This document shows positions 1 through 13,254 of a stretch of DNA of 13,254 nt, piece after piece; the first letter of the stretch is position 1, and the number at the start of each line of letters is the position of its first letter. The translations under genes and the position numbers were made by a program. The DNA is from a virus (taxonomy: Duplodnaviria; Heunggongvirae; Uroviricota; Caudoviricetes), in the IMG/VR virus record IMGVR_UViG_2734482778_000014, positions 1-13,254 of that record; one strand, given 5' to 3'. The notes beneath the pieces were generated by a model. It saw only the letters and a program-made list of their open reading frames with translations. It was not told where the DNA came from and made no database searches.

Positions 1-318
1 ATGAAAAAGATAGCTGCTATATCATTAATTAGTATTTTTATTATGTCTGGTTGTGCTGTGCATAATGATGAGACAAGTATCGGTAAATTTGGTCTTGCAT
101 ATAAAAGTAATATTCAGCGTAAACTCGATAACCAATACTACACCGAAGCCGAAGCTTCTTTAGCCAGGGGTAGAATATCTGGTGCAGAAAATATAGTAAA
201 AAATGATGCAACTCATTTCTGTGTTACTCAGGGCAAAAAAATGCAAATAGTTGAGCTGAAGACAGAAGGTGTAGGATTACATGGTGTCGCTCGTCTGACA
301 TTCAAATGTGGAGAGTGA
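1..318 (+). CDS. small predicted outer-membrane lipoprotein (105 aa), function unknown; probable prophage moron
   Basis: ATG at window position 1; N-terminus MKKIAAISLISIFIMSGC has a basic n-region, hydrophobic h-region and lipobox-like MSG|C (Cys18); residue +2 is Ala rather than Asp, so outer-membrane sorting is expected; stop TGA 316-318; visibly AT-richer than the tail genes downstream. Confidence 0.6.
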   Translation: MKKIAAISLISIFIMSGCAVHNDETSIGKFGLAYKSNIQRKLDNQYYTEAEASLARGRISGAENIVKNDATHFCVTQGKKMQIVELKTEGVGLHGVARLTFKCGE

Positions 319-380
319 GAATATTTTTTGGTAAGCGTCAAATATGCGCGTTCTGGCTGTGCGTAGCCGGAACCTGTGGG

Positions 381-413
381 AGCACGATGCCGATAAGTGA
401 AAGGCATCGTGCT
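381..413 (+). other. perfect 11-bp stem-loop (agcacgatgcc / ggcatcgtgct, 11-nt loop) immediately upstream of a strong Shine-Dalgarno AAGGAGG (417-423)
   Basis: Read directly: 381-391 is the exact reverse complement of 403-413. No T-run follows, so it is not a classical intrinsic terminator; it could be a translational or RNA-stability element or a junction remnant. Confidence 0.4.
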
Positions 414-2294
414 ATGAAGGAGGATTCTATCGATGTGGTCAATGGAAGACGGTTACCAGAGATAGGGCTTATGCATAAAAAAATAAGCCCGTGTACCCGC
501 CCTTTGAGTACGACTATAGACCTGAATACGCTTGGAGCCGCCGAACATCTTGGTTTATGGCGTAACAGTAGCTCGGCTATAGCTTCATATGAACGCAATT
601 ATCCAGAGGAAGGCGGCTTTGCTCAGGGGATGCTTGAGATCCTCGAAGGCGGGAATTATGGAAGAACGCAACGTTATACCACTCGCCGTGGAAATATGTA
701 TGTCCGCTGCCTTGCGGCAAGCTGGGATGTATCAAATCCGCAGTGGGAACCGTGGTTAAGAGTCGGTCATCAGTCAGAGAGTCGTTATTACGAAGGTGAT
801 TTAAATGTTCTAACCGACCCCGGTATTTACAGTGTTACAGGAAAGGCAACAAACGGTCCGATGCTGGACACCGTTGGCGCGACACTACTTGGGATACTGG
901 AAGTAATCAGACGTTTTGATGGTGTGTCTGTCTGGCAGCGTTACACAACCACAGGGAAATCAGAAACCACACAGGGACGCACTTTTGAGCGCGTCTACGC
1001 CGGGAGCAAATGGACCGAATGGCGAGAAGTATATAACTCCTTTTCGTTGCCTCTGAATCTGGGCATCGGTGGCGCAGTGGCAAAACTATCCAGTCTGGAC
1101 TGGCAGACCTACGATTTTGTGCCGGGCAGTCTGATAACCGTGCGGCTTGATAACATGACCAACATTCCCGACGGTATGGACTGGGGCGTCATTGATGGCA
1201 ACCTGATAAACATCGCAGTTGGTCCGAGTGATGATTCCGGTACGGGACGCTCAATGCATGTATGGCGAAGCACTGTAAGTAAAGCCAACTACCGCTTTTT
1301 TATGGTGCGCGTTTCAGGAAATCCGGGAAGCCGCACGATTACAACAAGACGAGTACCAATCATTGACGAAGCCCAGACATGGGGCGCGAAACAGACATTC
1401 AGTGCTGGCCTTTCTGGTGAACTGTTCGGCAATGCTGCGACAGCAACAAAGCTGAAAACAGCCCGTAAAATTAATAACGTTTCGTTTGATGGAACATCAG
1501 ATATTAACCTGACGCCTGAAGATATTGGTGCATTGCCAATAACGGGAGGAACTCTTACCGGCGGTTTAACTGCTGCTGGCGAGATTATTTCCAAATCGGC
1601 GAATGGTCTTCGTATTGCCTATGGCAACTATGGATTCTTTATCCGAAACGATGGTTCAAGCACATACCTCATGTTGACCAATTCGGGCGACAGCCTGGGA
1701 ACATGGAATAGTTTAAGGCCGCTTACCATTAATAACGCCAGTGGAGCTGTTTCTATCGGTAATAGTTTAACTGTTAATGGTGATATAGGAACCAATGCTT
1801 GGGTATATGCAAATCGTTTTGCAATTAATAGCAGTACCGGAATGTGGATAAATATGCGTGACCAGAATGTTATTTTTGGACGTAATGCGGTATCCACCGA
1901 TGGTGCTCAGGCATTGTTACGTCAGGACCATGCTGATCGCAAATTTATGATTGGTGGTCTGGGGAATAAGCAATTTGGCATCTACATGATTAATAATTCA
2001 AGGACAGCCAATGGCACCGATGGTCAGGCGTACATGGATAATAACGGGAATTGGCTTTGCGGTGCGCAAGTTATTCCCGGCAATTATGGTAATTTTGACT
2101 CACGCTATGTGAGAGATGTCAGACTTGGCACACGTGTTGTTCAGACCATGCAAAAAGGCGTGATGTATGAAAAATCAGGTCATGTAATCACGGGGCTTGG
2201 TATTGTCGGTGAAGTCGATGGTGATGACCCGGCAGTATTCAGACCTGTTCAAAAATACATTAACGGAACATGGTATAACGTATCGCAGGTGTAA
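414..2294 (+). CDS. H: phage tail fiber protein with P2 gpH-like C-terminus; N-terminal part divergent, start codon ambiguous
   Basis: Long ORF in frame with the track ORF 306..2294. The C-terminal ~70 aa (NYGNFDSRYVRDVRLGTRVVQTMQKGVMYEKSGHVITGLGIVGEVDGDDPAVFRPVQKYINGTWYNVSQV) matches the conserved P2 H / Mu S / P1 S-type fiber C-terminus as I recall it; the motif GNAATATKLKTARKINNVSFDGTSDINLTPEDIGAL is typical of enterobacterial prophage tail fibers; it is followed by a tail fiber assembly gene. Possible starts: ATG 306 (no SD, overlaps lipoprotein gene), ATG 387, ATG 414, or GTG 435 (11 nt after AAGGAGG). Symbol refers to the P2 homologue by C-terminal similarity only. Confidence 0.8.
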   Translation: MKEDSIDVVNGRRLPEIGLMHKKISPCTRPLSTTIDLNTLGAAEHLGLWRNSSSAIASYERNYPEEGGFAQGMLEILEGGNYGRTQRYTTRRGNMYVRCLAASWDVSNPQWEPWLRVGHQSESRYYEGDLNVLTDPGIYSVTGKATNGPMLDTVGATLLGILEVIRRFDGVSVWQRYTTTGKSETTQGRTFERVYAGSKWTEWREVYNSFSLPLNLGIGGAVAKLSSLDWQTYDFVPGSLITVRLDNMTNIPDGMDWGVIDGNLINIAVGPSDDSGTGRSMHVWRSTVSKANYRFFMVRVSGNPGSRTITTRRVPIIDEAQTWGAKQTFSAGLSGELFGNAATATKLKTARKINNVSFDGTSDINLTPEDIGALPITGGTLTGGLTAAGEIISKSANGLRIAYGNYGFFIRNDGSSTYLMLTNSGDSLGTWNSLRPLTINNASGAVSIGNSLTVNGDIGTNAWVYANRFAINSSTGMWINMRDQNVIFGRNAVSTDGAQALLRQDHADRKFMIGGLGNKQFGIYMINNSRTANGTDGQAYMDNNGNWLCGAQVIPGNYGNFDSRYVRDVRLGTRVVQTMQKGVMYEKSGHVITGLGIVGEVDGDDPAVFRPVQKYINGTWYNVSQV

Positions 2295-2297
2295 TTT

Positions 2298-2825
2298 ATG
2301 CAACACTTAAAAAACATTATTGCGGGAAATCCAAAAACGGTTGAGCAATATAAACTGACAAAGAATTTTGATGTTATCTGGTTATGGGCCGAAGACGGAA
2401 AAAACTGGTATGAGGAAGTAAGTAATTTTCAGGAAGACACGATAAAGATTGTTTACGACGAGCATAATATTATTGTCGCCATCACCAAAGATGCCTCCAC
2501 GCTTAACCCTGAAGGTTTTAGCGTTGTCGAGGTTCCTGATATTACCGCCAACCGACGTGCTGATGACTCAGGTAAATGGATGTTTAAGGGTGGTGCCGTG
2601 ATTAAGCGGATTTATACGGCAGATGAACAGCAGCAACAGGCAGAATCACAAAAGGCCGCGTTACTTTCCGAAGCGGAAAGCGTTATTCAGCCACTGGAAC
2701 GCGCTGTCAGGCTGAATATGGCGACGGATGAGGAGCGCACACGGCTGGCTGTATGGGAACGCTACAGTGTTCTGGTCAGTCGTGTGGATCTTGCAAATCC
2801 CGAATGGCCGGAAATGCCGCAATAA
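2298..2825 (+). CDS. G: tail fiber assembly protein (P2 gpG / Tfa family), 175 aa
   Basis: ATG 2298 with AGGTG SD, 3 nt after the fiber stop; 175 aa, the same length as P2 G; sits directly downstream of the fiber gene, the conserved Tfa position. Similarity is from recalled sequence, not a search. Confidence 0.88.
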
Positions 2826-2859
2826 GTTGTATGAGCTCTGGAGTGAGCTAACGTATCGA

Positions 2860-2901
2860 TAGCACAGAGTAAAGCCTAATCTGACAGTCCGCTCTGTGCT
2901 A
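2860..2901. repeat. perfect 10-bp inverted repeat (tagcacagag ... ctctgtgcta) separated by 22 bp
   Basis: Read directly: 2860-2869 is the exact reverse complement of 2892-2901. Lies in the intergenic region between gene G and the convergent ABC ATPase gene, at the left boundary of the AT-rich cassette. Confidence 0.6.
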
Positions 2902-2959
2902 GGTGCAGACATAGCTTAGAGCAGCTTGTGTAAATCTGCAGGGACGAGCTTAAAGAAGC

Positions 2960-2986
2960 GCCGCCTTCATAGAAGGCAGCATTTTA
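2960..2986. terminator. candidate bidirectional intrinsic terminator between convergent genes
   Basis: Stem gccgccttc (2960-2968) / gaaggcagc (2972-2980), 9 bp with one C-A mismatch and a 3-nt loop, followed by ATTTT on the plus strand and by CTTCTTT on the minus strand; 4 nt from the ABC ATPase stop codon (2984-2986). Confidence 0.45.
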
Positions 2987-5344
2987 CATTTGTCTACTAT
3001 CAATACCTGAACGTGCTGCTTCCATGAAGTTGATCCTTCCTGCTGGCATACCAAATTTTTTGTATTTATAACGAAAATAGGCCGACATACGGTCTTCATG
3101 CGTTGATATAATTATCTGACGATCTCGGAATTCAGTTCGTAGTAACTCGACAAAGCCAGCTACATTAATTTCGTCCAGTGTCTGAACAGGATCATCTACG
3201 AGCAATAGAGAGTGCTTGGCGTACCGCTGATTCAAGGCAAGAGTAAATGATAGTACCAATGCTGAAAGCTGGCCCGAACTCATGGAAAAGACGGCATCAT
3301 GCTCATGCCCTGGTGTTTCATTGAAGGCGATAGAATTACCATCATTTTCTATGAAGATACCCAGCCCCTGCTGATAACTTTGCATAAGGCGACCTGAATA
3401 GATATGAAATAGAATCTCAATCTCTTTAACTATAGATTCGAGATACGATCTTTTCTCACTCTCATAAATTCTTTTGATTTTCTGTAGATGACCTTTCAGT
3501 TTATCGGCCTTTCTAATTAATATTTCAGCTTTATTATACTCCAACTCACATTCCGAGATGTATTTAGATAAAGCAATGGATTGTTGCTGCCCTAAATAAG
3601 TTTTTTTCAATTCAAGTCTTGAGGGGGTGATATATTTAACCGAGAGGGGGTCGTTATTAAACACTTCACGAAAAACTCTCTCAAAATCATCATGGATACA
3701 GCTGTCGTCAACTGGTTTAAATATTTCACGAACGCGACGCTCGAGTTCATCTATCGCGAGTTGTGTTACAGGTTCAAAATTATCGCACAGTAAGTCCTGA
3801 AATATAACCCCCCCAGCTAGTAGTTGTTTATAATAATTTTCTAACCACAGGATTTGTTCTTCTGATAAACTTGTTAGTTGGCGCTTACGCTCAATACTTT
3901 CTTTCTCTTGCACCAGATATGTCTGCAGTACAATTTCAATGGGCTCCTGCCAGTTGCGTCTGAAATTGGCTAGTGCTTGTGAGAATTGATCATTCTGTTG
4001 CTCGGCTAAATTTTCTAGAATTATACGTTGGTTTTCAATTCCTCCAAGCAGAGCATCAGCCGTTGGCCAAGGATGTCCACACGTAGGGCAAATATTTGTC
4101 AAATCGCAGTGAGATTCATGCTTCCTGAAAGCACTTACCATTTGCTCGCGTGTTTGTAGCAGCGCCGCATAGCATTCCTGAACTTTATCTGAATTAGCTA
4201 ACTGCAATTTGAGCCCGGCTACCTGTTGATGAAACTCCTCCGGCGATAGGGTTTCCGGGAGGAGAGTGACCAGTGGAGCAGTGATCACCAAACGATCTTC
4301 ATTGATAGCCTTTATTGTATCTTTAAATGCGTCACTTAGTGCTAAGGCTGATTCAAAACAAGCAACGTCATCCTGCCATTTGTTCCTTTGTTCAATAGAT
4401 TGATAATACATCAAAAACCGCTGTTGTAGCTCCTGTTTAGGGAGGAGTTTCTTTATCAATTCATTATTATATAGCTGATTTTCATATTGTTCGAAATTTT
4501 CAGTAAAACGTCGGACTCGGAATAACTCTCCATCTGCAGATAACCACTGTTCGAATTGCTGTGCATCAACCTCCACAACATCACGATCCCATGGTTGATC
4601 TGTAATTGCGATAATCCTTTCATATGCAACAGAACTATCTGCTGGTAGCATCTGCTGCTTAGCTAGGTCCCATTTATCTTTAAGTTGTTTCATTTCGGCA
4701 TATTTCTGTGGATTACACAATTTACCGATTTTGGTTGATGCCAAGTTAATATTACTAATTTTGTCCTGAATGTCTCCAATATCGAACAGATGTGCAATCT
4801 GGCTCTGTCTATCTTTTTCCTTTTGTTTTAGCAACCGAGTGTTTTCTTCTTGCTCAACATAATGAAACAATTCAAAATCACGTTGATACTGATCTCCTAG
4901 TAAGGCAGAAAGGTATGATTCTTCTTGCGAAATAGCTTCACCTCGCTCCGCGTTGAAATCGGCTAATTCATAAAGAGGAAGCCTTAAATCAGCTACGCCT
5001 TTATGTTCATCTAGAACTGCTTTGCTGGCTGCTCTCTCGAGAAAACAACTACTCCCATCAACTAAGATCTCGGCACGGATTGAAAGCCAATCATCATTTC
5101 TCGCTTGTTTGAATAACCAAGGACAGCCAGTTTTCAAGCTTCGTCGATCTATTGTAAGTTTTTCGAGTTCAATATAGCGCCGGATTTTTCCTGTCAGTAG
5201 CAGTTCTAGTGCATCAAAAAAAGATGATTTACCGAAACCATTGGGACCATCAAGAACAATGAGATATTCACTTTCAAGAGTTAACTCTAGTTTCTCAAAG
5301 ACTTTAAAATTACGTACTTCTAGGCGTTTAACAATCAATTTCAT
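2984..5344 (-). CDS. SMC/Rad50-like ABC ATPase with long coiled-coil insert (LmuB / DdmC-like, ABC-three-component family)
   Basis: Preferred start ATG 5344-5342 (MKLIVKRLEVRNFKVF..., preceded by GAGG); the track ORF begins at an upstream GTG at 5368. Walker A GPNGFGKS at nt 5225-5248; about 650 residues rich in Q/E/K/L heptad-like sequence; CPTC (CxxC) at nt 4079-4090 near the protein midpoint; C-terminal signature-like SSGQ (3269-3280), Walker B LLLVDD (3191-3208) and H-loop STHED (His codon 3098-3100). Stop TAA 2984-2986. Confidence 0.85.
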   Translation of the reverse strand: MKLIVKRLEVRNFKVFEKLELTLESEYLIVLDGPNGFGKSSFFDALELLLTGKIRRYIELEKLTIDRRSLKTGCPWLFKQARNDDWLSIRAEILVDGSSCFLERAASKAVLDEHKGVADLRLPLYELADFNAERGEAISQEESYLSALLGDQYQRDFELFHYVEQEENTRLLKQKEKDRQSQIAHLFDIGDIQDKISNINLASTKIGKLCNPQKYAEMKQLKDKWDLAKQQMLPADSSVAYERIIAITDQPWDRDVVEVDAQQFEQWLSADGELFRVRRFTENFEQYENQLYNNELIKKLLPKQELQQRFLMYYQSIEQRNKWQDDVACFESALALSDAFKDTIKAINEDRLVITAPLVTLLPETLSPEEFHQQVAGLKLQLANSDKVQECYAALLQTREQMVSAFRKHESHCDLTNICPTCGHPWPTADALLGGIENQRIILENLAEQQNDQFSQALANFRRNWQEPIEIVLQTYLVQEKESIERKRQLTSLSEEQILWLENYYKQLLAGGVIFQDLLCDNFEPVTQLAIDELERRVREIFKPVDDSCIHDDFERVFREVFNNDPLSVKYITPSRLELKKTYLGQQQSIALSKYISECELEYNKAEILIRKADKLKGHLQKIKRIYESEKRSYLESIVKEIEILFHIYSGRLMQSYQQGLGIFIENDGNSIAFNETPGHEHDAVFSMSSGQLSALVLSFTLALNQRYAKHSLLLVDDPVQTLDEINVAGFVELLRTEFRDRQIIISTHEDRMSAYFRYKYKKFGMPAGRINFMEAARSGIDSRQM

Positions 5345-6032
5345 AACCTGCCTCAGATAATTTATCACCCATGGAAATTAATAGATCTTCCGGTAATACA
5401 TCCTGTGATACAATCTGAGCAGCTAAAGAATCAATAACTGAGTCGAATGTAGTTAATAGAGCAGGGTTATCCGTGCGCTGAATTTTTTCATTAATACTTC
5501 GTTCAAGGCTAGCTAAATCAGAATTACCAAAGCTATTAACTGCTATAAAAGGCAGTTTTATCACAAGTCTGTATAGTAGGCTTTGCCATCCACCTTGTAG
5601 GTAATGAGATTTATATTCGGTAAAGGTATCAGGAGAAGTAATCAATTCGCGAAAGACTGCTGCGAGTCCTTGGGTATCAACCTGCTGGTATAAAGCTTCA
5701 AGCTCTGCGGTAGTATATGGAAGTACGTGTTTCTTGAAGAAATAACTATCTTCTTCCGCATGATGAACTCTTTTACTACAAAGCACACTTGAGCTGTCAG
5801 TGTTCCATACAATCAATAAATTAATGTTTTTCTCAAGTGCGGGATCGGATGTGGCTTTTTTACATTCATTCAACCACCCAGCTTGGATTTCAGGTGTAAT
5901 TATCGGCTCACCAAAGACTACTAACCAGAAATTTTTCTTACCCAGTGTACTGTATTCGTATAACGCCAAGTCTGTGGAATGTTTACGCGTCAGTCCTTCT
6001 GATTCCAACAATTGCTCAATTAGGTTCTGCAT
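5328..6032 (-). CDS. hypothetical protein, 234 aa; candidate middle component of an ABC-three-component / Lamassu-like system (LmuC / DdmB position)
   Basis: ATG 6032-6030; stop TAA 5328-5330; no motif I can recognise. Sandwiched between the putative effector and the ABC ATPase with 17-nt overlaps on both sides, indicating a co-translated operon. Family assignment is by position only. Confidence 0.5.
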   Translation of the reverse strand: MQNLIEQLLESEGLTRKHSTDLALYEYSTLGKKNFWLVVFGEPIITPEIQAGWLNECKKATSDPALEKNINLLIVWNTDSSSVLCSKRVHHAEEDSYFFKKHVLPYTTAELEALYQQVDTQGLAAVFRELITSPDTFTEYKSHYLQGGWQSLLYRLVIKLPFIAVNSFGNSDLASLERSINEKIQRTDNPALLTTFDSVIDSLAAQIVSQDVLPEDLLISMGDKLSEAGYEIDC

Positions 6033-7332
6033 CTTTCAAACTCTCAGGTACATTGTTTAAAGAAACCATAGCCACCTTCTTATAATTCCCGATGCGGTTT
6101 TCCCTTAGTAATTCGTGTTCAATGGTATCCACTCCCTCAGTGGCGTCGATACCTACGAGTACGTCAGAGATTGAAGGTCTGTCTATGGCGCTGGTGATAA
6201 GTACACCGCCCTCAAATAAACATTCTACATCTTCGCTAATTGCCTGTTGCATGATGTCATGACAGATACTTTCCTGATGCTCTACAGCATGGTGGATACC
6301 TGTTGGATAATAGAAAAGCCCATCATTTAGCCAAGAGAATGCAACACCAGAAACTTCATTTCGTGCAGCCTGAACTAGTTTCCAGAAAATTGTAAACATC
6401 CCAAGTCGCATTGCATCACGATCAAGTGATTGTTCCTTAAATTCATCAAGAGTTCTAAAACGTCCCTTTTTATGCGGCATCGTTGCTCTCAGGAATGACT
6501 TCATTCCATCAACATCCAACGCAGTGATAGCAGCCAGATAGTCATCTAACTTTTGACATGCTGCTTGGGAGAAGCCGTCTTGGCGATCACAAAACTCTTG
6601 GTAGTATGTGCCAATATCAATCTGCAGGCGGCTAAGGAAGAACGCTTCATTCTCAAACGGAGTATAATCGTTTGCTTCGATTACACCATACAACTCAGAA
6701 AACTCGATGAATTCGCCAGCTGCGATTGCCGTCTGATGACGCACAGACTCGTGTATCCGACTATGGGTCATAATGACTTTTGAATTTACTATGGCTTCAA
6801 GCGTGTTCTGAATATTTGCAACGAGATGAATCTTCCAGGCGGGTAGTACTGCGATATTAGAAAGTAGGCTGGTAAGTTTATTCCTAATCAATCTGTCCAC
6901 CTCACTCAGTGGGCAAAAGGATTGTGTGGCATTTCCTTCTACATCAGGTGGAATAGGGTAAGCATAAAATCTCACTGGTCCATAGTCAGCCTCAAATGTT
7001 GCCGGAACGTTCATTACTTCGCGAGCCACATGGAAATAAGCGAGCTGCACACCTCGCTCCCTCGCACTATCCCGTTGGGTAGTGATGCCATCTCTGTAGG
7101 CGGAAAAGCGCGTGTCTTTGTACGCTTTGACCTGATGCATTGACAGGCATTGCTGGTGACGAAAAATTGCGAAATCATCCTGGCTTTCTAGCTGCAGTTT
7201 CAAATCTCGGTTCGCTTCATAATCTGAGGACATCATCTTCAAACAGTGGTACAGCGCCAGCTTGCCCTGATAGACAAATCCACTCCACGTAGAGATGGCT
7301 GTGTGTGGAAAAACTTGAGGAACAACTGCCAT
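6016..7332 (-). CDS. putative nuclease effector with N-terminal PD-(D/E)xK-like motifs (Cap4/DUF4297-like; LmuA / DdmA position)
   Basis: Preferred start ATG 7332-7330 (MAVVPQVF..., upstream AAGGGA); the track ORF begins at GTG 7347. N-terminal region contains GFVYQ (nt 7267-7281), then LQLESQDDFAIF and MHQVK: Asp codons at 7174-7179 and Q-x-K at 7126-7134, a spacing and context consistent with a restriction-endonuclease-like D...(E/Q)xK core. The C-terminal ~300 aa has no recognisable motif. Stop TGA 6016-6018. Confidence 0.5.
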   Translation of the reverse strand: MAVVPQVFPHTAISTWSGFVYQGKLALYHCLKMMSSDYEANRDLKLQLESQDDFAIFRHQQCLSMHQVKAYKDTRFSAYRDGITTQRDSARERGVQLAYFHVAREVMNVPATFEADYGPVRFYAYPIPPDVEGNATQSFCPLSEVDRLIRNKLTSLLSNIAVLPAWKIHLVANIQNTLEAIVNSKVIMTHSRIHESVRHQTAIAAGEFIEFSELYGVIEANDYTPFENEAFFLSRLQIDIGTYYQEFCDRQDGFSQAACQKLDDYLAAITALDVDGMKSFLRATMPHKKGRFRTLDEFKEQSLDRDAMRLGMFTIFWKLVQAARNEVSGVAFSWLNDGLFYYPTGIHHAVEHQESICHDIMQQAISEDVECLFEGGVLITSAIDRPSISDVLVGIDATEGVDTIEHELLRENRIGNYKKVAMVSLNNVPESLKDAEPN

Positions 7333-7415
7333 GAGATCCCTTATCACTTTAGATTCACATCATTGGGACATTCTCAGCACGGAGACTCTTCCCATCCTCT
7401 AACGATATATAGCCT

Positions 7416-7444
7416 ATTGACATATAAAATACTCTTAGTATTTT
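7416..7444 (+). promoter_or_regulatory. candidate sigma70 promoter: TTGACA (7416-7421), 17-bp spacer, TATTTT (7439-7444)
   Basis: Perfect -35 hexamer and acceptable -10 with correct spacing in the AT-rich region between the cassette and FI; predicted transcription start near 7451, reading toward the terminator at 7781-7809. Confidence 0.35.
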
Positions 7445-7780
7445 CGTGGATATTGTTCTATCCCCTAGATTTACATGCTTGTTGCTTATCATATCCTTAC
7501 ACTGAATCTTCGTTGGTTTGGTCAGCATCTCTAACCAGTCCCTCACGGAGAATTACTGCAACAATACAATTGTCATAAAACCTTCCGCTTAGAAGGGAAA
7601 ATGTCAACTCAACAAAGTGGTTGGCCCACTATTGATTAATAAACAATACTAGTAATGCTTCCATCGGCTGTAAGAAAAATTGAGGACTTCCGCTCCTCGC
7701 TCAAAGCAGGCTATCAGACTTGATAGCGTTTTGGCTATGTAAATTGTCAGTTGGAAAATGAGTGAGTACAAATCAGGACA

Positions 7781-7809
7781 GGCGGGCGAATTGCCCGCCT
7801 TTTCTTTAT
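7781..7809 (+). terminator. rho-independent terminator (GGCGGGC gaatt GCCCGCC then TTTTCTTTAT)
   Basis: Perfect 7-bp GC stem with 5-nt loop followed by a T-rich tract on the plus strand; no annotated plus-strand ORF of meaningful size ends upstream of it. Confidence 0.7.
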
Positions 7810-7903
7810 CTGTTGTTTCATCCACTGACCAGCCAGGTCAAATAGCGTCTCATGCACTGTCCAACAGAAAATAGTTGCACCCATTAACCACGGAGTTAAA
7901 CGG

Positions 7904-8565
7904 ATGAGTGACTATCATCATGGCGTGCAGGTGCTGGAGATTAACGACGGCACCCGCGTCATTTCCACCGTATCCACCGCCATTGTTGGCATGGTCTGCA
8001 CGGCCAGCGATGCGGATGCGGAAACCTTCCCCCTCAATAAACCGGTGCTGATTACCAATGTGCAGAGCGCAATTGCAAAGGCCGGTAAAAAAGGCACGCT
8101 GGCGGCGTCGTTGCAGGCCATCGCTGACCAGTCAAAACCAGTCACCGTTGTCGTGCGTGTTGAAGACGGCACCGGCGACGACGAGGAAACGAAACTCGCG
8201 CAGACCGTTTCCAATATCATCGGCACCACTGACGAAAACGGTCAGTACACCGGACTGAAAGCCCTGATGACACGATGGCTGAGGCGCACATGTGGGCTAT
8301 TGATAAGCCCATCACCGCAACGCTGATTCGCGACATCGTTGACGGCATCAATGCCAAATTCCGTGAACTGAAAAGCAACGGTTATATCGTGGATGGCACA
8401 TGCTGGTTCAGTGAAGAAGCCAATGATGCGGAAACCCTCAAGGCCGGAAAACTGTATATCGACTACGACTATACCCCGGTGCCTCCTCTCGAAAACCTGA
8501 CCCTGCGCCAGCGTATTACTTCAAGATACCTGGCAAGTCTGGTCACCTCGGTTAACAGCAATTAA
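7904..8565 (+). pseudogene. FI: tail sheath protein gene FI, disrupted: frame break and apparent internal deletion of about 0.5 kb
   Basis: ATG 7904 with GGAG SD. The N-terminal ~121 codons ([54 protein letters not shown]...TGLKAL) match the P2 sheath N-terminus as recalled. At about 8265-8270 the frame changes, and the sheath C-terminus ([35 protein letters not shown]...LVTSVNSN) continues in another frame to stop 8563-8565. Total coding capacity is about 220 codons, against the roughly 390-400 aa expected for a P2-type sheath. Confidence 0.8.
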
Positions 8566-8577
8566 GGAGCCTGACCG

Positions 8578-9096
8578 ATGGCAATGCCGCGCAAACTCAA
8601 GTTAATGAACGTCTTTCTGAACGGCTACAGCTATCAGGGCGTCGCGAAGTCCGTCACGCTGCCAAAACTGACCCGTAAGCTCGAAAACTATCGCGGTGCG
8701 GGGATGAACGGCAGCGCACCGGTAGACCTCGGCCTTGATGACGATGCGCTGTCAATGGAGTGGTCGCTCGGGGGCTTCCCGGATTCGGTTATCTGGGAAC
8801 TTTACGCCGCAACCGGTGTGGATGCCGTGCCGATTCGTTTTGCAGGCTCTTACCAGCGTGACGATACCGGCGAAACGGTGGCCGTCGAAGTGGTCATGCG
8901 TGGCCGTCAGAAAGAAATCGACACCGGCGAGGGTAAACAGGGAGAAGACACCGAGTCGAAAATCTCCGTGGTCTGCACCTATTTCCGGCTGACGATGGAC
9001 GGTAAGGAGCTGGTCGAAATTGACACCATCAACATGATTGAGAAGGTGAACGGCGTCGACCGGCTGGAGCAACACCGCCGCAATATCGGCCTGTGA
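8578..9096 (+). CDS. FII: tail tube protein (P2 gpFII), 172 aa
   Basis: ATG 8578 preceded by AAGGAG (8564-8569); 172 aa, the same length as P2 FII; sequence MAMPRKLKLMNVFLNGYSYQGVAKSVTLPKL... recalled as P2-type tube; conserved position after the sheath gene. Confidence 0.92.
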   Translation: MAMPRKLKLMNVFLNGYSYQGVAKSVTLPKLTRKLENYRGAGMNGSAPVDLGLDDDALSMEWSLGGFPDSVIWELYAATGVDAVPIRFAGSYQRDDTGETVAVEVVMRGRQKEIDTGEGKQGEDTESKISVVCTYFRLTMDGKELVEIDTINMIEKVNGVDRLEQHRRNIGL

Positions 9097-9103
9097 TTTT
9101 CAT

Positions 9104-9124
9104 CCGGTCAGCCTGGCTGACCGG
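9104..9124 (+). other. stem-loop between tube gene and gene E (ccggtcagc ctg gctgaccgg)
   Basis: Read directly: 9104-9112 is the reverse complement of 9116-9124 (9-bp stem, 3-nt loop), 8 nt after the FII stop. No strong T-run follows, so it is a possible attenuator, processing or stability element rather than a full terminator. Confidence 0.35.
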
Positions 9125-9152
9125 TTAACCCTGATTCAGAAGTGAGAAAACC

Positions 9153-9428
9153 ATGAACAAAGAAAATGTGATTACCCTGGACAATCCGGTCAAGCGTGGT
9201 GAGCAGGTTATCGAACAGGTCACGCTGATGAAACCCAATGCCGGGACGCTGCGCGGTGTCAGTCTGGCAGCGGTCGCGAACTCCGAAGTCGATGCACTGA
9301 TTAAGGTGCTGCCGCGCATGACGGCACCGATGCTGACCGAGCAGGAGGTCGCCGCGCTGGAACTGCCTGACCTTGTGGCGCTGGCCGGTAAGGTGGTCGG
9401 TTTTTTGTCGCCGAACTCGGTGCAGTAA
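9153..9428 (+). CDS. E: tail assembly chaperone (P2 gpE), 91 aa
   Basis: ATG 9153; 91 aa, the same length as P2 E; conserved position between tube and tape measure genes; contains the slippery heptamer near its 3' end. Confidence 0.88.
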   Translation: MNKENVITLDNPVKRGEQVIEQVTLMKPNAGTLRGVSLAAVANSEVDALIKVLPRMTAPMLTEQEVAALELPDLVALAGKVVGFLSPNSVQ

Positions 9429-9580
9429 CGTTTCCGAAAAATCTCTCGGTCGATGACCTGATGGCGGATGTGGCAGTGATATTTCACTGGCCGCCATCAG
9501 AACTGTATCCCATGAGCCTGACCGAACTCATCACATGGCGCGAAAAGGCGCTCCGGCGAAGCGGAAACACGAATGAGTAA
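9153..9580 (+). CDS. E': tail assembly chaperone E+E' fusion made by programmed -1 ribosomal frameshift
   Basis: Slippery heptamer T TTT TTG at 9401-9407 in the correct phase of the E frame (ggT TTT TTG); after a -1 shift the frame stays open to TAA 9578-9580, overlapping the T start codon at 9573. Combined product is about 142 aa. E/E' frameshifting is established for P2 and analogous to lambda G/GT. Confidence 0.75.
9401..9407 (+). promoter_or_regulatory. -1 frameshift slippery site TTTTTTG for E/E'
   Basis: Heptamer fits the X XXY YYZ pattern in the E reading frame; the -1 frame downstream is open for about 58 codons. Confidence 0.75.
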
Positions 9581-12020
9581 CAATGTAAAATTACAGGTAT
9601 TGCTCAGGGCTGTTGACCAGGCATCCCGCCCGTTTAAATCCATCCGCACAGCGAGTAAGTCGCTGTCGGGGGATATCCGGGAAACACAACAATCACTGCG
9701 CGAGCTGAACGGTCACGCATCCCGTATTGAGGGATTTCGCAAGACCAGCGCACAGCTCGCCGTGACTGGTCAGGAACTGAAAAAAGCCAGACAGGAAGCC
9801 GCAGCTCTGGCTGTCCAGTTTAAAAATACTGAACGACCGACAAATGCACAGGCAAAGGCAATGGAAGCCGCGCGTAAAAATGCGTCTGAGTTACAGGCGA
9901 AATATAACAGCCTGAGATTGTCGGTACAGCGCCAGCGTCAGGAATTGAGTCAGGCGGGTATTAATACCCGTAATCTGGCGCATGATGAACGAGGGCTGAA
10001 AAACCGTATCAGTGAAACCACCGCACAGCTTAACCGGCAGCGTGACGCGCTGGTGCGTGTCAGTGCGCAACAGGCAAAACTTAATGCAGTAAAACAGCGT
10101 TATCAGGCCGGAAAGGAACTGGCCGGAAACATGGCCTCAGTGGGCGCTGCTGGTGTGGGGATTGCGGCGGCGGGAACGATGGCCGGAGTTAAGCTGCTGA
10201 TGCCCGGCTATGAGTTTGCGCAGAAAAACTCAGAATTGCAGGCCGTGCTGGGTGTGGCAAAAGACTCCGCCGAAATGGCCGCGCTACGCAAGCAGGCGCG
10301 CCAGCTCGGCGACAATACCGCAGCCTCGGCGGATGATGCAGCCGGTGCGCAGATTATCATTGCGAAAGCCGGTGGGGATGTTGATGCCATTCAGGCGGCA
10401 ACGCCGATCACGCTGAATATGGCGCTGGCGAACCGTCGCACGATGGAAGAAAACGCCGCTCTGCTGATGGGGATGAAATCCGCCTTTCAGCTTTCAAACG
10501 ATAAGGTCGCTCATATCGGGGATGTTCTCTCCATGACGATGAACAAAACCGCCGCCGATTTTGACGGCATGAGCGATGCGCTGACCTATGCCGCACCTGT
10601 GGCAAAAAATGCCGGTGTCAGCATTGAAGAAACCGCCGCAATGGTCGGGGCACTGCATGATGCAAAAATCACAGGCTCAATGGCGGGGACGGGAAGTCGT
10701 GCCGTGTTAAGCCGCCTGCAGGCACCGACGGGAAAAGCATGGGATGCACTCAAAGAACTTGGTGTGAAAACCTCAGACAGTAAGGGAAACACCCGGCCAA
10801 TATTTACCATTCTGAAAGAAATGCAGGCCAGTTTTGAGAAAAACCGGCTCGGTACTGCCCAGCAGGCTGAATACATGAAAACCATTTTCGGGGAGGAAGC
10901 CAGCTCAGCCGCCGCCGTGCTGATGATTGCCGCCTCAACCGGAAAGCTGGACAAACTGACTGCTGCGTTTAAAGCCTCAGACGGGAAGACCGCAGAGCTG
11001 GTAAATATCATGCAGGACAATCTCGGCGGTGACTTTAAGGAGTTTCAGTCCGCTTATGAAGCGGTGGGGACAGACCTGTTTGACCAGCAGGAAGGCGCAC
11101 TGCGTAATCTCACGCAGACGGCCACAAAGTATGTGTTAAAACTAGACGGCTGGATCAAGAAAAACAAATCACTGGCGTCAACCATCGGCCTCATTGTCGG
11201 TGGCGCACTGGCGCTTATTGGCATCATCGGTGCCATTGGTCTTGTAGCCTGGCCGGTTATCACCGGCATCAATGCCATTATCGCGGCAGTGGGCGCAATA
11301 GGGGCAATCTTCACGACGGTTGGCAGTGCCGTTATGACGGCCATCGGGGCGATTAGCTGGCCGGTTGTGGCCGTGGTGGCCGCCATTGTCGCCGGGGCGT
11401 TGCTTATCCGTAAATACTGGGAGCCTGTCAGCGCATTCTTTGGCGGTGTGGTTGAAGGGCTGAAAGCAGCATTTGCGCCGGTGGGGGAACTGTTCACGCC
11501 ACTTAAGTCGCTGTTTGACTGGCTGGGCGAAAAGTTACAGGCCGCTTGGCAGTGGTTTAAAAACCTGATTGCCCCGGTTAAAGCCACCCAGGACACCCTG
11601 AACCGTTGCCGTGACACGGGCGTCATGTTCGGGCAGGCACTGGCTGACGCGTTGATGTTGCCGCTTAATGCGTTCAACAAACTGCGCAGTGGTATTGACT
11701 GGGTACTGGAAAAACTCGGTGTTATCAACAAAGAGTCAGACACACTTGACCAGACCGCCGCCAGAACTCATGCCGCCACGTATGGCACCGGTGGTTATAT
11801 TCCGGCGACCAGCTCTTATGCAGGCTATCAGGCTTATCAGCCGGTCACGGCACCGGCTGGCCGCTCTTATGTAGACCAGAGTAAAAACGAATATCACATC
11901 AGCCTGACGGGTGGTACTGCGCCGGGGACACAGCTTGACCGCCAGTTACAGGATGCGCTCGAAAAATACGAGCGGGATAAACGTGTGCGCGCCCGTGCCA
12001 GCATGATGCATGACGGTTAA
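9573..12020 (+). CDS. T: tail tape measure protein (P2 gpT), 815 aa
   Basis: ATG 9573; 815 aa, the same length as P2 T; coiled-coil-rich N-terminal half and a long Gly/Ala/Ile-rich hydrophobic segment (around nt 11150-11420) typical of tape measure proteins; conserved position after E/E'. Confidence 0.93.
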   Translation: MSNNVKLQVLLRAVDQASRPFKSIRTASKSLSGDIRETQQSLRELNGHASRIEGFRKTSAQLAVTGQELKKARQEAAALAVQFKNTERPTNAQAKAMEAARKNASELQAKYNSLRLSVQRQRQELSQAGINTRNLAHDERGLKNRISETTAQLNRQRDALVRVSAQQAKLNAVKQRYQAGKELAGNMASVGAAGVGIAAAGTMAGVKLLMPGYEFAQKNSELQAVLGVAKDSAEMAALRKQARQLGDNTAASADDAAGAQIIIAKAGGDVDAIQAATPITLNMALANRRTMEENAALLMGMKSAFQLSNDKVAHIGDVLSMTMNKTAADFDGMSDALTYAAPVAKNAGVSIEETAAMVGALHDAKITGSMAGTGSRAVLSRLQAPTGKAWDALKELGVKTSDSKGNTRPIFTILKEMQASFEKNRLGTAQQAEYMKTIFGEEASSAAAVLMIAASTGKLDKLTAAFKASDGKTAELVNIMQDNLGGDFKEFQSAYEAVGTDLFDQQEGALRNLTQTATKYVLKLDGWIKKNKSLASTIGLIVGGALALIGIIGAIGLVAWPVITGINAIIAAVGAIGAIFTTVGSAVMTAIGAISWPVVAVVAAIVAGALLIRKYWEPVSAFFGGVVEGLKAAFAPVGELFTPLKSLFDWLGEKLQAAWQWFKNLIAPVKATQDTLNRCRDTGVMFGQALADALMLPLNAFNKLRSGIDWVLEKLGVINKESDTLDQTAARTHAATYGTGGYIPATSSYAGYQAYQPVTAPAGRSYVDQSKNEYHISLTGGTAPGTQLDRQLQDALEKYERDKRVRARASMMHDG

Positions 12021-12034
12021 GGAGGTGACGAAAA

Positions 12035-12514
12035 ATGATGCTCGCGTTAGGTATGTTTGTTTTTATGCGCCAGACGCTGCCACACCAGACCATGCAGCGT
12101 GAATCTGATTATCGCTGGCCGTCAAATTCCCGTATCGGTAAACGGGATGCCTACCAGTTTCTCGGTGTTGGCGAGGAAAACATGACGCTTGCCGGTGTGC
12201 TTTATCCTGAACTGACCGGCGGAAAGCTGACGATGACCACGCTCAGGCTGATGGCAGATGAAGGCCGGGCGTGGCCGTTGCTGGATGGCACCGGCATGAT
12301 TTACGGCATGTATGTCATCAGCAAGGTGAGTGAAACAGGGAGTATTTTCTTTGCAGACGGCACACCCCGGAAAATTGATTTTACGCTGTCGCTCACCCGC
12401 GTTGATGAATCACTGGCCGCGCTTTATGGCGATATCAGTAAACAGGCGGAGTCGCTCATCGGTAAGGCCGGCAGTATGGCGACCAGATTCACAGGTATGA
12501 CGGGGGCGGGATAA
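12035..12514 (+). CDS. U: tail protein gpU, 159 aa
   Basis: ATG 12035 preceded by AAGGAGGTGA; 159 aa, the same length as P2 U; stop TAA 12512-12514 overlaps the D start by 1 nt. Confidence 0.9.
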   Translation: MMLALGMFVFMRQTLPHQTMQRESDYRWPSNSRIGKRDAYQFLGVGEENMTLAGVLYPELTGGKLTMTTLRLMADEGRAWPLLDGTGMIYGMYVISKVSETGSIFFADGTPRKIDFTLSLTRVDESLAALYGDISKQAESLIGKAGSMATRFTGMTGAG

Positions 12515-13254
12515 TGCTGGATGCGCTGACATTTGATGCAGGCAGTACGCTGACGCCGGATTATATGCTGATGCTCGACAGCAGGGATATTACCGGCAAT
12601 ATCAGCGACCGTCTGATGAGCATGACCCTGACGGATAACCGGGGCTTTGAGGCTGACCAGCTTGATATTGAACTGAACGATGCCGACGGGCAGGTCGGGC
12701 TGCCGGTTCGTGGCGCTGTCCTGACGGTGTATATCGGCTGGAAAGGTTTTGCCCTGGTATGCAAAGGAAAATTTACCGTTGATGAGGTTGAACACCGGGG
12801 CGCACCGGATGTGGTCACCATCCGCGCCCGGAGTGCAGATTTTCGCGGGACGCTCAATTCCCGCCGTGAAGGCTCCTGGCATGACACCACGCTCGGTGCG
12901 ATTGTTGAGGCGATAGCCTCCCGTAACAGGCTGGAAGCCAGTGTCGCTCCGTCACTGGCCGGAATTAAAATCCCGCACATCGACCAGTCGCAGGAGTCTG
13001 ATGCAAAATTCCTGACCCGCCTTGCTGAACGCAACGGCGGTGAGGTGTCGGTAAAAATGGGAAAACTGTTGTTTCTCAATGCGGGGCAGGGGGTGACGGC
13101 CAGCGGTAAAAAAATCCCGCAGATTACCATCACCCGCAGCGATGGCGACCGTCATCATTTTGCGATTGCTGACCGCGGAGCCTACACAGGTGTAACGGCA
13201 AAGTGGTTACACACCAAAGACCCGAAGCCGCAAAAGCTGCGTATTACCGTGAAG
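12514..13254 (+). CDS. D: tail protein gpD (late control / tail formation), 5' portion only; runs off window end
   Basis: ATG 12514 in a TAATG overlap with the U stop; frame open for 247 codons to the end of the window (MLDALTFDAGSTLTPDYMLMLDSRDITGNISDRLMSMTLTDNRGFEADQLDIELNDADGQ...). Not in the ORF track because no stop codon lies within the window. Confidence 0.88.
   Translation, partial: MLDALTFDAGSTLTPDYMLMLDSRDITGNISDRLMSMTLTDNRGFEADQLDIELNDADGQVGLPVRGAVLTVYIGWKGFALVCKGKFTVDEVEHRGAPDVVTIRARSADFRGTLNSRREGSWHDTTLGAIVEAIASRNRLEASVAPSLAGIKIPHIDQSQESDAKFLTRLAERNGGEVSVKMGKLLFLNAGQGVTASGKKIPQITITRSDGDRHHFAIADRGAYTGVTAKWLHTKDPKPQKLRITVK

Follow-up and report, generated by a model that had tools for sequence, protein, structure and literature searches.

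A long-clade Lamassu operon retained intact in the G-FI cargo slot of a cryptic P2 remnant

The window analyzed here is a 13,254-nt stretch of DNA (positions 1 to 13,254 of the Caudoviricetes record IMGVR_UViG_2734482778_000014 in IMG/VR), and it carries a minus-strand operon of three genes, lmuA, lmuC, and lmuB. Together these constitute a complete Lamassu, or ABC-three-component (ABC-3C), system with all of its parts and motifs intact. The open reading frame (ORF) listing placed three minus-strand ORFs at 2984-5368, 5328-6032, and 6016-7347, where the first-pass annotation of this DNA had located the operon. The GTG-extended frames are best trimmed to conserved ATG codons, which puts the start of lmuB at 5344 and that of lmuA at 7332. 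On public contigs with the identical sequence, the called genes encode 438, 234, and 786 amino acids (aa), and an alignment with homologous upstream regions showed a conserved Shine-Dalgarno sequence, TAAGGGA, 6 nt 5' of the lmuA ATG. The genes are as follows.

6016-7332, minus strand: lmuA, 438-aa effector with a predicted N-terminal Cap4-type PD-(D/E)xK nuclease and a C-terminal ABC-3C domain, CTD1
5328-6032, minus strand: lmuC, 234-aa middle component, ABC-3C MC1 (Pfam MComp1)
2984-5344, minus strand: lmuB, 786-aa Rad50/SbcC-like ABC ATPase of the long Lamassu type

The order of effector, middle component, and ATPase, with lmuC lying between lmuA and lmuB as in type II Lamassu, matches LmuACB and DdmABC. 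Overlaps of 17 nt at both junctions (lmuA/lmuC and lmuC/lmuB) suggest translational coupling. The cassette is AT-rich, with a GC content of 0.37-0.46, whereas the sheath gene and the tail genes to its right have 0.52-0.59. Profile searches with Pfam and PADLOC, which had been proposed as a check on the annotation, together placed the three proteins in Lamassu/ABC-3C, and a significant family match for each member of the trio is far beyond chance.

Residues 126-387 of LmuA matched the Pfam family 'C-terminal domain 1 of ABC-3C systems' (CTD1; 2.5e-26), residues 20-83 matched Cap4_nuclease near its threshold (1.5e-5, 25.7 bits), and PADLOC recognized the protein as LmuA (8.9e-18), in keeping with its earlier description as a putative nuclease effector. 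In 46 LmuA homologues reaching down to 23% identity, W16-S-G-x-x-Y-Q-G-K24, D53, and Q67-V-K69 were invariant. Judged by sequence, D53 (codon at 7174-7176) and Q67-x-K69 (7126-7134) form an intact Cap4-type variant of the PD-(D/E)xK site; these coordinates and that of the Walker A lysine of LmuB agreed with the first-pass positions. The LmuA family profile aligned its GFxYQ...DD...QVK motifs to HamA (8zue), and the predicted catalytic K69 is near-equivalent in position to K57 of Vibrio cholerae LmuA and K68 of Salmonella LmuA. We followed up the suggested structural search with an AlphaFold2 (AF2) model of the effector (predicted local distance difference test, pLDDT, 79.5), whose best neighbors in the Protein Data Bank (PDB), albeit at weak E-values, were the solved LmuA (9nxx, 9hr5) and Cap4 (6vm5, 6wam) structures. 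In this monomer model the C-terminal domain (CTD) consists of helices and a beta-sheet plus a low-confidence acidic loop. By analogy with characterized systems, CTD1 is predicted to act as the docking/oligomerization domain. Matches of designed TIM-barrel PDB entries to the 'QVK' segment were judged spurious. The CTD and MC names are used here as they appear in Pfam matches and in citing papers; the ABC-3C nomenclature behind PF20276 and PF20289 reportedly originates with Krishnan et al. 2020.

LmuB matched Pfam SMC_N (1.3e-18, residues 178-763) as well as AAA_23 and AAA_21, and PADLOC identified it as LmuB over its full length (1.1e-61), so the previous call of an SMC/Rad50-like ATPase of ~786 aa stands. 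All of the expected ATPase motifs were found: Walker A (G33-K39, with the K39 codon at 5228-5230), the Q-loop (Q165), the signature S689-S-G-Q692, Walker B (LLLVD717-D718, the two aspartates encoded at 3191-3196), and the H-loop (H749). A zinc hook, C419-P-T-C422 (4079-4090), lies centrally and is the sole CxxC in the protein. Among 32 LmuB homologues down to 23% identity, G33-K39, Q165, S689-x-G-Q, D717-D718, H749, and the hook C419-P-T-C422 were invariant. The insert between the two halves of the ATPase head is ~450 aa long and poor in proline and glycine. The LmuB family profile matched Rad50 heads in the PDB, and its positions 316-457 matched the crystal entry of the human RAD50 zinc hook (5gox, E = 0.0065), while no solved short LmuB was found with it. 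This pattern fits the published placement of long LmuB nearer to SbcC/Rad50 (PMC12663957).

The middle protein had been described as lacking any recognizable motif. Contrary to that description, LmuC belongs to the Pfam family 'ABC-3C Middle Component 1' (MComp1; 3e-10). Its AF2 model (pLDDT 86.6) comprises an N-terminal alpha/beta domain (1-106) followed by a helical region, a flexible linker at ~160-172, and a C-terminal helical domain. In the model, the first ~100 residues adopt a restriction-endonuclease-like alpha/beta fold in which K68-N69, E93-E94, and K100-K101 are kept in the family, and N69, E93, K101, and K159 are invariant family-wide. An exhaustive profile search defined the LmuC family as 560 clusters at 50% identity. 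The best 150 of these were nearly all stand-alone proteins of ~215-255 aa, with shorter fragments and one 374-aa entry as the exceptions, and none of the 150 was a fusion informative about function. Long LmuC has been likened to the C-terminal SbcC-binding domain of SbcD as a trait of the long clade (PMC12663957); SbcD was absent among the matches listed in our LmuC searches for such an ancestry.

Haudiquet et al. 2025 divided Lamassu into a short and a long clade (PMC12663957). Short systems, which include DdmABC, have an LmuB of ~600 aa, a Walker B of the form hhhhD followed by Q/S/T/E, and zero to two CxxC motifs; long systems have an LmuB of ~800 aa, a Walker B of hhhhDD, one CxxC, and a longer, different LmuA-CTD and LmuC. 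With 786 aa, LLLVDD, and a single CPTC, the LmuB of the window has all three of the long-clade features and is therefore assigned to that clade. The monomer models of LmuA and LmuC also agree with the published long forms, having a helix-plus-sheet CTD and an extra LmuC domain past the linker, respectively. The traits of short systems and DdmABC were not found in the window, which encodes CTD1 and MC1, 786 aa, and a DD Walker B instead. The cassette is thus a long-clade Cap4-CTD1/MC1 Lamassu, a member of a known family and not a new kind of system. The first-pass annotation had offered a choice between a Lamassu member and a possibly undescribed variant: the Pfam and PADLOC results uphold membership, but the variant is not undescribed, since the combination of CTD1, MC1, and long LmuB is already catalogued in PF20276, PF20289, and the long clade of PMC12663957.

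Relative to the Cap4 subtype of long Lamassu, the window system has the same LmuB traits, the same pairing of Cap4 with a larger CTD, the longer LmuC, and the same order lmuA-lmuC-lmuB. We found no difference in kind, and what sets the system apart is where it is carried, in the G-FI slot of a P2-like remnant at yegQ/yegR. The systems studied structurally combine Cap4-CTD7 with MC3 (V. cholerae, Salmonella) or Cap4-CTD12 with no LmuC (Bacillus). V. cholerae DdmABC (Lamassu Vc-Cap4) and Salmonella enterica LmuACB (9nxx, 9hr5) have in common with the window three genes, a Cap4 effector with D...QxK, and an SMC-like sensor, and presumably the same logic of sensing, release, and oligomerization. 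They are short type II systems, however, with CTD7, MC3, an LmuB of ~600 aa, and a deviant Walker B in place of CTD1, MC1, 786 aa, and DD. The LmuB of V. cholerae has no zinc hook, whereas that of the window has its one CPTC, and LmuA and LmuC sit at the kinked apex of the coiled coil in the solved short complex but are predicted at the heads in long forms. The likeness to DdmABC proposed earlier from gene order consequently holds for architecture only, as the sub-clade is different (CTD1/MC1/long vs CTD7/MC3/short). SbcCD/Rad50-Mre11, the proposed ancestor of Lamassu, is also a zinc-hook ABC ATPase with a split head, and Rad50 was the best PDB sequence match of LmuB. The window system differs from it in having no Mre11/SbcD phosphoesterase, a shorter coiled coil, ABC-3C-specific partners, and a mobile context. 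Sequence and profile searches of the PDB returned no solved Lamassu proteins, only the N-termini of Rad50, SMC, and PtuA, the RAD50 hook, and spurious TIM-barrels.

The operon lies within a low-GC island between two P2-like late genes.

2298-2825, plus strand: gene G (tail fiber assembly, Caudo_TAP), the left flank of the slot
2913-7774, no strand assigned: cargo island, low in GC and without homology to the P2-like phage vB_EcoM-720R8
7904-8565, plus strand: gene FI (tail sheath), the right flank of the slot, a pseudogene

By BLAST, vB_EcoM-720R8 matched the flanks at 2083-2912 and 7775-8269 and had unrelated genes between them, and in some P2-like prophages homology resumes at ~7645-7692. 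The island was inserted after P2 G and ahead of the late-promoter region of FI. Taken by itself, the right flank occurs in ~1000 Escherichia coli genomes and 68 phage records. P2-like phages with these common flanks and other genes between them identify G-FI as a cargo slot, as the first-pass annotation had anticipated. The slot resembles the P2 slots Z/fun (G-FI) and old/tin (A-Q), where cargo likewise lies between conserved late genes and varies in content among P2-like phages. The P2 defense hotspot explored experimentally by Rousset et al. 2022 lies at A-Q (old/tin), as opposed to G-FI here. A 2026 preprint on P2 and P4 describes defense hotspots inside the P2 late genes along with a tail-gene accessory hotspot. 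We found no direct or inverted repeats flanking the cargo and hence no hint of an insertion mechanism.

What carries the operon is a cryptic P2 remnant located at yegQ/yegR. The window was 99.99% identical end to end with one public assembly. Its first ~495 bases are chromosomal and not phage, with the ORF at 1-318 encoding YegR, and this chromosomal flank is fused into the interior of the tail fiber gene H, which has lost ~329 N-terminal codons. The 662-aa ORF at 306-2294 is accordingly a chimera, and the truncation of H at the chromosomal junction means that the prophage has lost its left arm, all that would lie past H towards yegR. Within FI, 529 bp are deleted after 8269, with 2 nt of microhomology and a shifted frame; in sister assemblies with the same cassette the gene is intact at 396 aa. 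The first-pass description of a prophage with an adjacent sheath gene is therefore right about the G-FI position, but needs correcting in that FI is disrupted and only a truncated remnant of the prophage is left.

According to gene calls, nine other assemblies encode an identical LmuC at the same yegQ/yegR site, and the DNA of their cassettes differed from the window by zero to few substitutions. The late region is apparently complete in two of the nine. The other seven have the chromosomal junction of the window but differ in where the phage DNA begins, which is within gene I, within H, at window position 1175, or at 2750, the last of which removes H and most of G. In the comparison with window 1-13237, seven sister assemblies had lost 10401-12393 as well, a stretch covering part of T and U. 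The Lamassu operon was intact in all ten loci, and the sister loci show at least six distinct deletions that spare lmuACB. An intact operon amid such deletions agrees with the 2026 P2/P4 preprint, which states that near-identical defense genes persist in defective elements. The nesting of deletions from one fixed end may reflect aberrant excision or serial deletion.

At other loci the trio common to all cassettes is a CTD1 protein, an MC1 protein, and an SMC-like ATPase of ~780 aa, down to ~24% identity. A Pectobacterium cassette (LmuA 85% identical) resides inside an integrative conjugative element (ICE) with an integrase and VirB genes. In Aeromonas caviae (~24% identity) the island that holds the cassette also encodes a resolvase, RadC, CbeA, and a type I restriction subunit. 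A Shewanella algae cassette (48% identity) adjoins guaA in two assemblies, and in a third assembly an identical cassette adjoins a 1922-aa NACHT (Avs-like) protein and TrbL; this suggests, as a separate point, that the same chromosomal spot in S. algae is an insertion site for differing mobile cargo. Copies with 80% nucleotide identity were present in 3 of 5426 complete E. coli genomes, each in an island integrated at ssrA, where an integrase and an Eco57I-type restriction-modification gene are neighbors. No close copy was found in complete RefSeq E. coli genomes or sequenced phages, no LmuA homologue was detectable in a phage collection of 50,697 records, and plasmid homologues were at most 31% identical. 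The mobile and defense contexts of the homologues argue against a housekeeping repair role.

Considering what the analysis showed, namely the trio of proteins with their catalytic and structural motifs, the operon organization, the mobile contexts of relatives, and long-clade membership, we conclude with a probability of roughly 0.85 that the cassette is an apparently functional long-type Lamassu operon, acquired horizontally as cargo in the G-FI slot by a P2-like prophage which later decayed. How it would act can be proposed from the cryo-EM and genetics of short Lamassu. A LmuB dimer, joined by its zinc hook, would form a complex with LmuC and hold one LmuA monomer inactive through the LmuA CTD. 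When a phage or plasmid invades, LmuB and LmuC would sense the ends of its DNA or its aberrant replication intermediates, and an ATP-dependent rearrangement would then release LmuA. Free LmuA would oligomerize through its CTD and thereby assemble Cap4 nuclease active sites that degrade double-stranded DNA indiscriminately, and the infected cell would die or arrest, an outcome known as abortive infection. The geometry of sequestration probably differs from that in DdmABC. Published AlphaFold (AF3) models of the long clade place the LmuA-CTD and LmuC at the LmuB heads, like SbcD on SbcC. With CTD1/MC1 unrelated in sequence to CTD7/MC3 as well, the geometry, and possibly the logic, may differ.

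Several points weigh against the conclusion that this is a working Cap4 Lamassu. The Cap4_nuclease score of LmuA falls 0.5 bit under the gathering cutoff of 26.2, the Foldseek E-values of the LmuA model are 0.03-0.2, and PADLOC v2 has no model that recognizes the LmuC of the window. Only one long Lamassu has been reported as validated, and its effector is a hydrolase-protease, not Cap4 (PMC12663957). Lamassu structures and biochemistry all come from short systems (CTD7/MC3 or CTD12), to whose counterparts the LmuA-CTD and LmuC had no detectable homology in single-sequence and profile searches of the PDB. Retention of the cassette spans near-zero sequence divergence and is therefore only weak evidence of selection. 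The defense role of the cassette is itself predicted, by analogy with those systems.

The same head-bound geometry leaves room for another mode of action, in which LmuA stays at the LmuB heads, as in SbcCD, and cuts the DNA ends or hairpins of the sensed invader in situ, with no released killing tetramer. LmuB is closer to Rad50/SbcC than to the solved short LmuB and keeps both its zinc hook and a Walker B with the canonical acidic DD, the AF3 models put long LmuA and LmuC where this mode needs them, and CTD1 is unrelated in sequence to the CTD7 tetramerization domain. Still, characterized Cap4-type nucleases cut non-specifically and depend on oligomerization, and the authors who defined the long clade propose release and oligomerization as the general mechanism, so we consider in-situ cutting unlikely. 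Quite unlikely, in our estimate, is the extended form of this idea, that long CTD1/MC1 Lamassu as a whole is an SbcCD-like head-bound machine in which LmuC directly recognizes or processes DNA ends and cutting takes place in situ with no suicide by free tetramers. That LmuB works in ordinary DNA repair, as a housekeeping SbcCD- or RecN-like locus, has next to no probability. Its N-terminal ATPase region does match RecF, Rad50, and SMC weakly, but NCBIfam repair equivalogs scored far under their cutoffs (e.g., RecF, 38.7 vs 172 bits), and the partner proteins match CTD1 and MComp1, with no calcineurin-like phosphoesterase (Metallophos) domain matched in either. The locus is AT-rich and mobile and its occurrence is patchy, and even an 80%-identical copy is restricted to the three E. 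coli genomes noted above. Domain content and distribution rule this explanation out. The first-pass annotation had listed an unrelated housekeeping ATPase and a conserved chromosomal locus as outcomes that would speak against Lamassu; we found no SbcD/Mre11 partner and no RecN, and the related cassettes sit in mobile or defense contexts.

The remaining alternatives concern what the operon does for its carrier. Its main role could be competition between elements or stabilization of the carrier, e.g., through exclusion of plasmids or satellites, with defense against lytic phages secondary. DdmABC came to light as a module that eliminates plasmids, with which it is toxic, homologues of the window cassette occur in ICEs and integrative islands, and the cassette persists while the surrounding prophage is deleted. 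On the other hand, the Lamassu systems tested also protect against phages, and such a role is compatible with a functional Lamassu operon and not exclusive of it; as the main role, we regard it as possible though somewhat improbable. The decay of the carrier, with H truncated, FI frameshifted, and the left arm lost, could also mean that the cassette has become inactive, a relic within a dying prophage. This is very unlikely given three full-length ORFs with every catalytic and structural motif intact, protein sequences shared unchanged by many assemblies (281 indexed collection blocks contain LmuC), and sister-locus deletions that all spare the cassette.

The locus itself is a compact, intact, native enterobacterial (E. 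coli) long Lamassu with a Cap4-type effector. The long clade has been proposed as an evolutionary bridge between SbcCD repair and short Lamassu, and in the literature examined we found no solved structure for this clade and no report of a validated Cap4 member. A cassette that can be cloned in E. coli could show whether the mechanism of sequestering, releasing, and tetramerizing generalizes; were the SbcCD-like view of the long clade true, a P2 remnant with an intact native E. coli cassette would be a convenient model for it. The near-identical assemblies, in which a P2 prophage has been whittled down by at least six deletions with its defense cargo untouched, offer a concrete case of defense genes outliving their vehicle, which has been described statistically for P2 and P4 (2026 preprint).

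Three further features mark the edges of the cargo and the region upstream of lmuA.

2959-2981, no strand assigned: GC-rich hairpin with T-rich tracts on both strands
7333-7502, minus strand: lmuA leader, ~170 nt, which travels with the cassette and holds the TAAGGGA
7780-7800, plus strand: terminator-like hairpin of P2 origin, AGGCGGGCGAATTGCCCGCCT with a T-rich stretch after it, shortly before the FI start

Homology of the leader with an island of E. coli PapM-32-1 extends to window ~7502, and the leader is conserved in E. coli and Pectobacterium homologues at other loci, including an invariant GTGATAAGGGATCTCATG. The native promoter of lmuA probably lies within this leader. A promoter scan gave no convincing sigma-70 promoter for lmuA, and promoter-like sites were fewer than in shuffled sequence. 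Rfam found no RNA families in the window. The hairpin at 2959-2981 (-17.3 kcal/mol, z = -2.5 by terminator scan and folding) is probably a bidirectional terminator that parts the convergent transcripts of G (plus) and lmuB (minus). The idea that late transcription from G silences the cassette in antisense was dropped because this hairpin looks like a terminator on both strands. The hairpin at 7780-7800 falls within the region homologous to P2-like phages, at the right edge of the slot. In the remaining part of gene H, the segment at 1535-2082 was unmatched in vB_EcoM-720R8 although both of its sides matched, and it looks like a swapped receptor-binding segment of the tail fiber.

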